This document shows, in pieces, positions 24,275 through 25,525 of a stretch of DNA of 64,000 nt. The notes beneath the pieces were generated by a model. It saw only the letters and a list, made by a program, of their open reading frames with translations. It ran no database searches and had not been told where the DNA came from. Source of the DNA: Spirochaetia bacterium. GTDB lineage: Bacteria; Spirochaetota; Spirochaetia; SZUA-6; Bin103. The DNA is taken from assembly GCA_965208575.1 (NCBI GenBank), contig CBDBOV010000004.1, forward strand, positions 512,001 to 576,000. The letters run 5' to 3'. Numbering within the stretch: position 1 is the stretch's first letter; the number at the start of each line of letters is the position of its first letter. The position numbers were made by a program, and so were the translations under genes.

Positions 24275-24285
24275 CTTCACCTCCT

Positions 24286-25525
24286 GTGCGCCGGCACAAA
24301 CCGGCAGGGTGTTGTGAATGAAGGAGTCATACGTCGAAGGGCTAGCGACCCACGGCGGCCCCGAGTCATGCGCCGTCGCTCGTAAGGGCGGGGGTGTAGC
24401 GTTGACAGGGGTACGTGCGGGCCGGGTATCGAGCCGCGAAAGGAATTACTTTGGGGTGCCGACGCCGTAGGAGGATGCGGAAGGCCACACCCGGGGCGCC
24501 GATATCGCGAGGCGCCACGGGACCCTGCGCGGTCATAGACCCCGAGCACGTACGGAAACACCTTGCGCGGGAGCCGGGAGATCCCAGCTTCGTCTGTGGC
24601 GGATGGCGCCGCAGGCCGTGTCGGGAAGTCCAAGGACGTACGCCGACGTTGAACGGAGCTGGGAAGTCGGACAGGCCCATAGTACCTGGGAAACCCGCGA
24701 ACAAGGACGGGAGCTGCCGCAGGCGGCGCGGCTATGGTGAACCCTACACGGGCACGCAGGCGGAAACGCCGGATACAGCCAAGGGAGCACCTACGGCCAC
24801 GCCGGCCGGTAGCGACCGGGCCGCGGAGCGGGTGGAGGAAAGGGGCCTGGCCAAAGGGAATCCGCACCAGCAAAACGCGCCCCGGACACCGCGCCGGCAA
24901 TACGGAGGGGACCTGGAGGCCAACCTCCTGGACCTCTGTGGATGGCTGCAGCGAGGAGCGTACCGGGCGAAGCCGGTGCGGAGGGTGTTCGTCCCCAAGA
25001 GCGACGGGCGGCAACGACCGCTCGGCGTGACGGCGCTGGAAGACAAGATCGTCCAGCGTGCGACAGTCGAAGTGCTGAACACCATCTACGAGACTGACTT
25101 TCTCGGGTTCAGTTACGGGTTCCGACCGGGGCGCAGCAAGTACAATGCGTTGGACGCGCTCTATGTGGGCCTGCTGACACGGAAGGTGAACTGGGTGCTC
25201 GATATGGACATCCGTGGGTTCTTCGATGCCATCGACCACGGCTGGCTGGTGAAGACCGAGCTTCGGCGGCGCCTGCACGATCCGGTCCCGGAGGTGGGAA
25301 GCTGGCTGCGCTCGGTTGTGAGTGGGCACCTGCGTTACTACGGGGTGCCCAGGAACTCCCGCGCACTCCGCCTGTTCCGCCTCCGGGTTGGTCGGCTCTG
25401 GTATCGGTCGATGCGGCGGCGCAGTCAGAAAACCCGGCTTACCTGGGAGCGGATGAGCCGCCTGCTCGACCACTGGTTGCCACCGCCCCGAGTGTGCCAT
25501 CCCTATCCCTTGCACCGCCTTGGCG
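24286..25525 (+). mobile_element. Group II intron remnant with internally deleted RT/maturase, lacking DV/DVI
   Basis: GTGCG start. YRAKPVRRVFVPKSDGRQRPLGV..EDKIVQ..SYGFRPGR..DIRGFFDAIDH is fused directly to domain X (WLRSVV..RRRSQK); the YADD region is deleted. Confidence 0.88.

Follow-up and report, generated by a model that had tools for sequence, protein, structure and literature searches.

What directs a group II intron to the complement of a Shine–Dalgarno (SD) sequence? The question is raised by a 64-kb window, i.e., the whole stretch of DNA analysed here (positions 512001–576000 of contig C4 in the genome G000, of which C1, C2 and C6 are further contigs), where sequence beginning with GTGCG, the intron start at all junctions of the window, directly follows CCTCCT at 12703-12713(+), 24280-24290(+) and 29276-29286(-), and CCTCTT at 51802-51812(+). 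Read on the complementary strand, every one of these 5' flanks presents the SD sequence AGGAGG, followed after 5–6 nt by ATGATACTSAAAGAACCGCACGCGCGCGCGGCGTGA, an 11-codon open reading frame (ORF), MILKEPHARAA*, located ~165–190 nt ahead of a gene for a family-5 solute-binding protein (SBP). These introns are very probably decayed copies from a mobile group II clade that is addressed by an SD-like exon-binding site 1 (EBS1) to ribosome-binding sites, where it resides in antisense orientation. This reading draws on loop/exon pairing with covariation, exact insertion, a site pattern recurring in many phyla and a very recent burst, all of them properties read from nucleotide sequences.

The 11-mer CCTCCT+GTGCG alone is not significant in the window (five matches with at most one mismatch vs. 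2.35 expected; 11 of 100 shuffles reach five), and no intron follows the fifth match, at 57842. Unlike the bare 11-mer, the covariance-model scores are significant, from which we conclude that the introns are real: the Rfam model RF02005 (group-II-D1D4-6; gathering score 49) matches 24323-24542 with 179.7 bits, i.e., a ribozyme structure of domains I–IV, 51845-52034 with 113.6 bits and 12746-12885 with 103.3 bits, while a sub-cut-off match of 30.1 bits lies at 29067-29243(-); there are 17 RF02005 matches genome-wide. Junctions and model matches together bear out the original prediction that each of the four remnants opens with GTGCG immediately behind CCTCCT or CCTCTT, which complements the SD of an upstream ORF. 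None of the four copies is intact. Their extents, drawn by blastn against a fuller copy on contig C6 and against the intron of a related genome, G020 (both described below), are as follows, together with the two pairing elements of the best-preserved ribozyme.

12709-12860, plus strand: intron remnant 1, first 152 nt only, behind the leader at 12661-12697 and the SBP gene at 10704-12518(-) (Rfam, Pfam, blastn)
24286-25525, plus strand: intron remnant 2, with domains I–IV and a broken ORF for the intron-encoded protein (IEP); the reverse transcriptase (RT) blocks RT0 and RT5–7, domains V/VI and the 3' end are gone (Rfam, Pfam, blastn)
24280-24285, plus strand: CCTCCT, intron-binding site 1 (IBS1) of remnant 2, complement of the SD of the minus-strand leader ORF
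24469-24474, plus strand: AGGAGG, EBS1 of remnant 2, in the 9-nt loop of the DId3 hairpin gccgacgccgu-AGGAGGA-ugcggaaggc (Rfam structure line, minimum free energy (MFE) fold, covariation)
29280-28711, minus strand: intron remnant 3, first 97 nt and last ~470 nt (RT7, X, domains V–VI), with an internal deletion and both ends retained (blastn)
51808-52321, plus strand: intron remnant 5, nt 1–195 joined to the X-domain region, with 5' exon CCTCTT, EBS1 at 51991-51996 and leader at 51760-51796

These remnants share 92–97% DNA identity. Domains V/VI are absent from the copies at 12709, 24286 and 51808 and retained in 29280-28711; at remnant 2, the Rfam scan gave no match to RF00029, and the Pfam RVT_1 match of its ORF (24415-25671) is limited to profile positions 1–109. 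Remnant 3 adjoins the leader at 29292-29328 and the SBP gene at 29324-31261(+), and its 3' exon starts with tcttctccagat, the same 3' exon as in empty-site sequences. Beyond remnant 2, three repeats of gtttctcg and then ~15 consecutive G occupy 25670-25730, and the motif recurs flanking the C6 copy (a paralogous locus).

The address of the intron is legible in its EBS1. At both 24469-24474 and 51991-51996, AGGAGG sits in a 9-nt hairpin loop where the Rfam consensus letters vary, the MFE fold agrees, and a second hairpin with a 10-nt loop follows, a candidate seat of the alpha' motif that lineages IIE/IIF carry at the tip of a DId3 stem-loop. Across 50 distinct 5' junctions with the canonical GT start (tandem junctions and duplicates dropped), pairing was counted in a fixed register, loop positions 1–6 after the conserved GU against exon positions -1 to -6, standard pairs only: 285 of 300 positions pair, whereas 2000 exon shuffles average 172 and never exceed 195. 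The 16 introns without an SD-like loop (ATGCAT, CGATAG, TAGTGT, TAAGCG and others) follow the same rule (89 of 96 paired; shuffle mean 44.7, maximum 61). The first loop base tracks position -1, being A:T in the window, U:A in G020, C:G in the genome G023 and one copy of the genome G018, and G:C in two other G018 copies, and the closing pair of the hairpin also varies (C-G in 13 and U-A in 14 of 45 distinct loops). Rfam structure, MFE fold and loop/exon covariation thus agree in placing AGGAGG in the Id3 loop, and its identification as EBS1, proposed from the window alone, stands.

Three other intron lineages of the window's genome display loop/exon complementarity as well (GACAA(A)/TTTGTC, TCTCAT/ATGAGA and a third with one mismatch). 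One of them, of the same Rfam type, has four near-identical copies (C2:295280, C1:507520, C2:585370 and C6:489230(-); locus L022) with an intact 446-aa IEP, the EBS1 GACAA(A) and 5' exons ending in TTGTC, whereas the two others are single (C1:142091, with TCTCAT/ATGAGA, and C6:642636(-)).

When 57 SD-type sites are aligned on the insertion point, information is restricted to -6 to -1, where just pyrimidines occur, to a weak T at -7, to +1 and to a smeared CAT at -16 to -13, the stretches -17 to -40 and +2 to +25 being flat. At +1, T occupies 29 of 46 sites, and all G020 sites read have G; the SD-to-ATG spacing runs from 4 to 9 nt.

Fuller copies exist both in the window's genome and in its relatives. 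The C6 copy, C6:951485-953166(-), retains both ends, and its domain V/VI reaches 36 bits with RF00029 (cut-off 40). Its junctions read cctcct|GTGCG...CTCCAAC|tcttctctagatct, and empty leaders read cctcct|tcttctctagatct or near variants thereof. In another genus of the same family, hereafter g2 (genomes G018, G020 and G023), the intron is 85% identical to that of the window's genus. At least 16 copies were found in G020, the intact form, as at L058:423-2438, encoding a 542-aa IEP; 14 of the 16 show no difference over 2016 nt, and 12 of these 14 identical copies precede an ATG. A second copy stands directly behind 7 of the 16: since an occupied site still offers IBS1, new copies can land again and build tandem arrays, in which the first G of the resident intron would serve as +1.

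The orthologous sites of five insertions of G020 or older are empty in the sister genomes G018, G019, G021, G022 and G023. At the four sites where the 3' exon was read, the empty orthologues join the 5' and 3' exons exactly; at the fifth, a hydantoinase site occupied by a G020 tandem whose 3' exon was not read, only the empty orthologue and its perfect CCTCCA|G target were seen. The filled-site hexamer is already present in the empty orthologues of four of the five sites (CCTCCA|G twice, CCTCCG|C and an imperfect CCTTCA|G).

The 20 g2 junctions (16 in G020, three in G018, one in G023) have unrelated 5' exons ending in CCTCC(A/G/T/C) or CCTTC(A/G). In 17 of them, an antisense ATG lies 10–15 nt from the insertion point, and 12 of these 17 ATGs open ORFs of 69 to >595 codons. 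Pfam families were recognized in 6 of the 10 ORFs scanned (alpha-L-fucosidase, hydantoinase B, amidohydrolase 2, DUF362, Mrr_cat, IU_nuc_hydro), and for four of these six the match starts at profile position 1 between residues 4 and 45 (residues 4–12 in three cases), so that these ATGs are true starts.

The pattern extends well beyond spirochaetes. Scanning one genome per species with the G020 IEP yielded 351 relatives, and the analysis proceeded with the best 80 loci; 5' ends were placed with an nhmmer profile of the first 280 nt, introns were classed by their loop alone, and duplicate and tandem junctions were removed. An antisense ATG at offset 9–18 accompanies 35 of 39 distinct SD-type junctions vs. 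3 of 23 junctions with another EBS1 (Fisher p = 1.5e-9). CCTCCT-type 5' exons are thus, as had been supposed, antisense SDs of unrelated genes, reached by independent insertions in other genera and phyla. By record title, the hosts include Acidobacteria/Thermoanaerobaculia, Planctomycetota, Gemmatimonadota, Alphaproteobacteria, Ignavibacteriaceae, Binatia, Methylomirabilia, Myxococcales and others. Identical copies precede different genes within single records (four in a Thermoanaerobaculaceae record, three in Phycisphaerae, two in an alphaproteobacterial record), and Pfam recognizes a family, with scores exceeding the curated cut-off, in 7 of the 10 host ORFs that were scanned, Iso_dh, adh_short and sulfatase among them, with profile position 1 at residues 6–7. 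The EBS1 of this SD clade reads AGGAGG in the window and UGGAGG, CGGAGG, AAGGAG, GGAGGU or GGAGAU in relatives. In an IEP tree of 63 rows, one clade (Shimodaira–Hasegawa-like approximate likelihood ratio test: 98) unites 36 SD-type rows with four others (TGGAAC, GAAAGG, ATGCAT, CGATAG), the remaining 23 rows being 21 non-SD and two SD-type. The non-SD relatives have ordinary long conserved 5' exons, e.g., atcaaactgagacacta, common to two records.

Several individual relatives deserve mention. On a Klebsiella pneumoniae IncL/M plasmid (L201:1100-1340), an intron with 53% IEP identity and a fragmented ORF sits antisense within the palindrome actgtatgtataaacagt, which fits the LexA-box consensus, ~22 nt ahead of the umuD SD; the EBS1 of this intron, ACUGU (loop ACTGTTA), pairs with acagt in the flank. 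The SD type is therefore not alone in residing antisense in 5' regulatory DNA. One Marinacidobacterales record (L154 and L152) contains seven or more units of a non-SD relative arrayed head to tail, mostly ORF-less units of ~881 nt with ORF-bearing units of ~2005 nt between them, each starting directly after the previous 3' end. At the SD-type locus L108:2600-4600, the 3' exon contains an inverted copy of the intron's own 5' exon (aaggaacacggcccatgacc), so that the gene start stands on both sides of the intron, once in inverted form.

In the window's own genus, the sites are of a single kind. The window has five leaders (12661-12697, 24238-24274, 29292-29328, 40631-40667 and 51760-51796), and the genome has 46 copies with at most eight mismatches to the 37-mer. 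Each is laid out as an SD, the ORF MILKEPHARAA*, which holds an alternating CG run, and a short hairpin, CCCGG-TGAA-CCGGG; the element has no Rfam match. For 44 of the 46, the longest ORF downstream (~600 aa, SBP_bac_5-like) matches the SBPs of the window at E < 1e-10. Two of the window's leaders concern us most, one filled (with its gene) and one empty.

24239-24274, minus strand: leader ORF MILKEPHARAA* (11 codons plus stop), ~165 nt upstream of its SBP gene (read from the sequence)
22291-24072, minus strand: SBP gene behind the leader at 24238-24274 (Pfam SBP_bac_5, E = 5e-64)
40631-40667, plus strand: cassette 4 leader, with SD AGGGGG and no intron 5' end upstream

Classified by eye, 21 of the 46 flanks are filled and 25 empty. 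Cassette 4 is indeed without the intron, as first noted from the window, and the explanation then offered, that AGGGGG mismatches EBS1, fares well in one respect (none of the five CCCCCT leaders is filled vs. 11 of 19 CCTCCT leaders; p = 0.041) and less well in another, eight perfect CCTCCT leaders being empty too. An intron occupying the cassette 4 site was considered and rejected: the RT fragment at 39296-39609(-) shares only 69% identity with the G020 intron and lies ~1 kb from the leader, with an ORF between them, and it is treated as a remnant of another lineage. It forms part of a different group II IEP remnant at 38334-39609(-), which runs from RT5 to the X domain with frame breaks (69% nucleotide identity to the G020 intron). 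Beside it, the ORF 39580-40173(+) resembles the N-terminus of a phosphoenolpyruvate-utilising enzyme, judging from the translation only.

The original prediction had supposed that the four copies reflect one ancestral insertion, a view that we abandon. The SBPs adjoining the leaders are only 32–54% identical to one another vs. 92–97% for the DNA of the remnants, and the decay paths differ, which identifies the copies as separate insertions; remnant 3, for instance, retains the RT7 region lost by both remnant 2 and the C6 copy, so these copies decayed separately. The 46-member leader family of this genome has thus been colonised repeatedly. By our own reading of the GC-skew signs of C2, C3, C4 and C6, 7 of 12 junctions have the inferred lagging-strand template vs. 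five the leading one; no replication-strand bias is shown in this genome, where the copies are old and the contigs possibly rearranged.

How such insertions would arise can be outlined. The excised intron RNA would pair through EBS1 with the 6–7 nt CCTCC(T/A/G) on the template strand at a gene's ribosome-binding site, probably assisted by an EBS3–IBS3 pairing with +1, and would reverse-splice precisely at the SD border that faces away from the gene, with no need for an IBS2 or any further conserved flank. The cDNA would then be primed from replication-fork strands, going by what is known of introns without an endonuclease domain (RmInt1, class C). A copy so placed would lie antisense in the 5' leader or between cistrons and leave the SD, the start codon and the ORF whole. 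It is quite conceivable, if still short of an even bet, that SD mimicry is a universal address across phyla and that the ribonucleoprotein finds genuine translation-initiation regions by more than the 6–7 paired bases; candidates for the extra recognition are the DNA state at gene starts or an encounter of the SD-like EBS1 with the 16S anti-SD tail in transcription-coupled ribosomes.

A number of observations weigh against RBS addressing, or at least against its sufficiency. Among the g2 junctions, two of 20 lack a nearby ATG and one has it at offset 23, while five of the 17 ATGs open ORFs of only 13–54 codons (L077, L081, L090, L091 and L093, in G020 and G018), which may be leader peptides like those of the window or broken genes. 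Four of the 39 SD-type junctions of the broad set lack the ATG, and the ORF check of that set covered a flank of 60 nt. The motif background (an ATG 4–10 nt downstream of 5.9% of 5367 TGGAGG and of 11.7% of 4182 AGGAGG) is that of the window's genome, used as a stand-in for G020. Domain I of two copies yielded no EBS2, i.e., no consistent complement to the 5' exon from -7 to -40 (the only runs, at -19 to -30, were rejected as GU-rich and not common to both copies in the expected loop), and EBS3 was not located either: a column-by-column scan for a complement of +1 picked out nothing but invariant A columns, +1 varying too little. In the window's genome, the 3' end of the 16S rRNA gene (C6, minus strand), ggatcacctcct|TTTAAAG, offers a perfect IBS1 with +1 T in sense orientation (CCTCCT|T) and is unoccupied, as are the eight perfect leaders mentioned above. 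No sigma-70-type promoter was found by scanning either strand of the G020 intron, an element lying antisense to its neighbour. At one g2 site, next to the fucosidase gene, the target itself differs between filled and empty genomes (see below). Above all, the mechanism outlined above accounts neither for the preference for genuine SDs over other GGAGG sites nor for the exclusive use of the SBP-leader SD in the window's genus: all 12 preserved 5' junctions of the SD lineage in the window's genome are in leaders, which make up only 12 of its 488 AGGAGG-N4-10-ATG sites, so the SD alone does not explain site choice there. The claim that the intron homes to ribosome-binding sites is supported by g2 and by other phyla; in the window's genus, where the intron was found only in the leader, there is more specificity than the SD provides.

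The alternative that survives best, although we deem it unlikely, is that the intron inserts at any CCTCC(N) and that later selection produced the gene-start pattern, antisense copies within genes being lost and copies ahead of an SD tolerated. It would fit a target whose information is confined to 6–7 nt and +1, and a spacing to the ATG variable enough (4–9 nt) to indicate that the ATG itself is not read; intergenic GGAGG being mostly SD, orientation would follow from the motif, and two of the 20 g2 sites are not at an ATG. Yet the G020 burst sits badly with it. Fourteen copies identical over 2016 nt leave little time for purging, and 12 of them are nonetheless at an ATG vs. ~6% expected; copies in dispensable genes, or in sense and hence spliceable, should survive, and none was seen. 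Nor is an insertion between promoter and SD, or between cistrons, obviously harmless, as at the hydantoinase site, where the insertion point is bounded by the upstream cistron's stop codon on one side and by the SD on the other. Selection by itself seems to account only weakly for a burst of identical copies.

Seen from the window's genus only, ordinary site-specific homing into the repeated SBP leader (~40 nt nearly invariant), comparable to that of RmInt1 into ISRm2011-2 and with an IBS1 that is the SD complement by accident, would be attractive. The 12 junctions just cited all lie in the leader despite its small share of the AGGAGG-ATG sites, and every matched 5' junction in the same-genus genomes G001, G003, G005 and G006 has a leader upstream (three of these four carry long ORFs with YADD). 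Moreover, several diverged sublineages (GTACGCC.., ATGCRCC.., GTGCGCCGGGAA..GGTGTTTG) share the leader position. This explanation is improbable all the same: the 85%-identical g2 intron and the IEP clade elsewhere are found at the SDs of unrelated genes with no common flank, no EBS2 complementary to the leader was found, and the 5 nt between SD and ATG vary among filled leaders.

Finally, it is highly improbable that the SD-like end of the 5' exon was brought in by co-conversion from a donor site, because, even though the fucosidase site (L078/L058 vs. L176–L180) reads CCGCCA in five empty orthologues and CCTCCA in the filled G020 site, the other four sites were already as described above before filling, the imperfect CCTTCA stayed imperfect, and both the ATG and the ORF are host sequence. 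At the fucosidase site, this single base within IBS1 corresponds to an SD of TGGCGG in the five intron-free orthologues and TGGAGG in the intron-bearing genome.

To which kind of group II intron does an RBS-addressed element belong? The G020 IEP unites an RT with a maturase (X) domain and has no endonuclease domain: it scores 334.4 bits with TIGR04416 (cut-off 300), matches RVT_1 over its full length and contains YADD. Domain V, in the MFE fold of L058:2352-2438 (G020), has a 2-nt bulge and a 5-nt loop, UAGUC, and domain VI has a bulge. The RNA starts with GUGCG and measures ~700 nt without the ORF; its 3' end is ..CCAAC in the window's genome, ..CCGAC in most relatives and ..CCGAA in G020, the last departing from the AY rule. 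The antisense strand of the G020 intron shows three overlapping terminator-like matches at ~nt 590–614 (1.0 expected). The nearest solved RT is GsI-IIC (E = 2.4e-41), and neither this PDB match nor the plasmid match decides the class.

In its RNA, the clade most resembles lineages IIE and IIF (Cl.be.I2, Ge.ur.I1, Pe.th.I2), with which it shares a small IIB-like ribozyme, an IEP without endonuclease domain, a 5-nt domain-V loop and an EBS1 in the DId3 hairpin beside a second stem-loop. According to passages of PMC3753933, this 5-nt loop replaces the GNRA tetraloop in these lineages, the EBS2–IBS2 pairing is dispensable for their splicing, and the introns treated in that paper were selected because both EBS1 and EBS2 pair with a specific 5' exon. 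The window's clade differs in that its EBS1 is itself the SD sequence, its target is a generic signal shared by many genes and no IBS2 was seen. It may be lineage E, F or a later 'g' variety, judging from RNA traits.

In its habits, the clade recalls class C introns, for which excerpts of PMC4424553 and PMC12584367 report a generic genome-wide motif, a short IBS1, no IBS2, no endonuclease domain, an intergenic location and tandem copies. All of these have counterparts here (no IBS2 being detected), so the analogy drawn in the original prediction was apt. Class C, however, reads a DNA hairpin plus 3–5 nt, in sense and downstream of a gene, whereas the present target is 6–7 nt, linear, antisense and upstream, and the RNA, which matches RF02005 and measures ~700 nt without ORF, is not of the small IIC kind. 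The 5' exons consist of gene starts in reverse, with no base conserved at -7 to -40 (no search for exon hairpins having been made). Association with the translation signals of genes is shared with a IIB1 lineage that, in the part of the 2025 paper PMC12584367 citing Michel et al. 2007, is placed in or next to the start and stop codons of housekeeping genes (Avi.groEL, EcKTE56.groEL) and has a 5'-subterminal insertion of 300–700 nt. The latter, however, sits at a codon of one particular gene (that text is silent on IIB1 orientation), while the window's clade sits antisense at the upstream edge of the SD of many unrelated genes, and has no 5' insertion, the domain I match beginning at nt 1.

Two further systems bear comparison. 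RmInt1 (class D, Sinorhizobium meliloti) likewise lacks an endonuclease domain and homes into a repeated genomic target, as the intron does in the window's genus; but extracts of PMC8914252 give it IBS1, IBS2 and IBS3 in an insertion sequence element and a lagging-strand-template bias, whereas here no IBS2 was found and the strands stand at 7 vs. 5. IIC-attC introns also lie opposite to the genes downstream and, in the section of PMC3001079 concerned, have outward promoters driving the next cassette, in contrast to the promoter-free scan of the G020 intron. The portion of the 2015 review PMC4424553 on target specificity lists three of them for bacterial group II introns, namely long homing sites, terminator hairpins and attC. 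A full-text literature search returned no report of SD or RBS targeting by group II introns (the supplementary boundary and neighbour tables of PMC7306698 and PMC8919778 were outside its coverage), and term look-ups in PMC4424553, PMC3753933, PMC8643678, PMC7306698, PMC8919778 and PMC3552965 gave nothing.

If the SD address is true, it would constitute a fourth target strategy, after homing sites, terminators and attC, and one workable in almost any bacterium: the presence of one IEP clade in many phyla would then follow from a target that precedes most genes in most bacteria. It raises the mechanistic question of how a pairing of 6–7 nt selects real ribosome-binding sites among thousands of GGAGG motifs. 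The clade would also lend itself to the development of targetron-type tools that insert ahead of genes and spare the reading frames. For the hosts themselves, copies come to lie between a gene and its promoter or upstream cistron, so that the expression of the neighbour may change.

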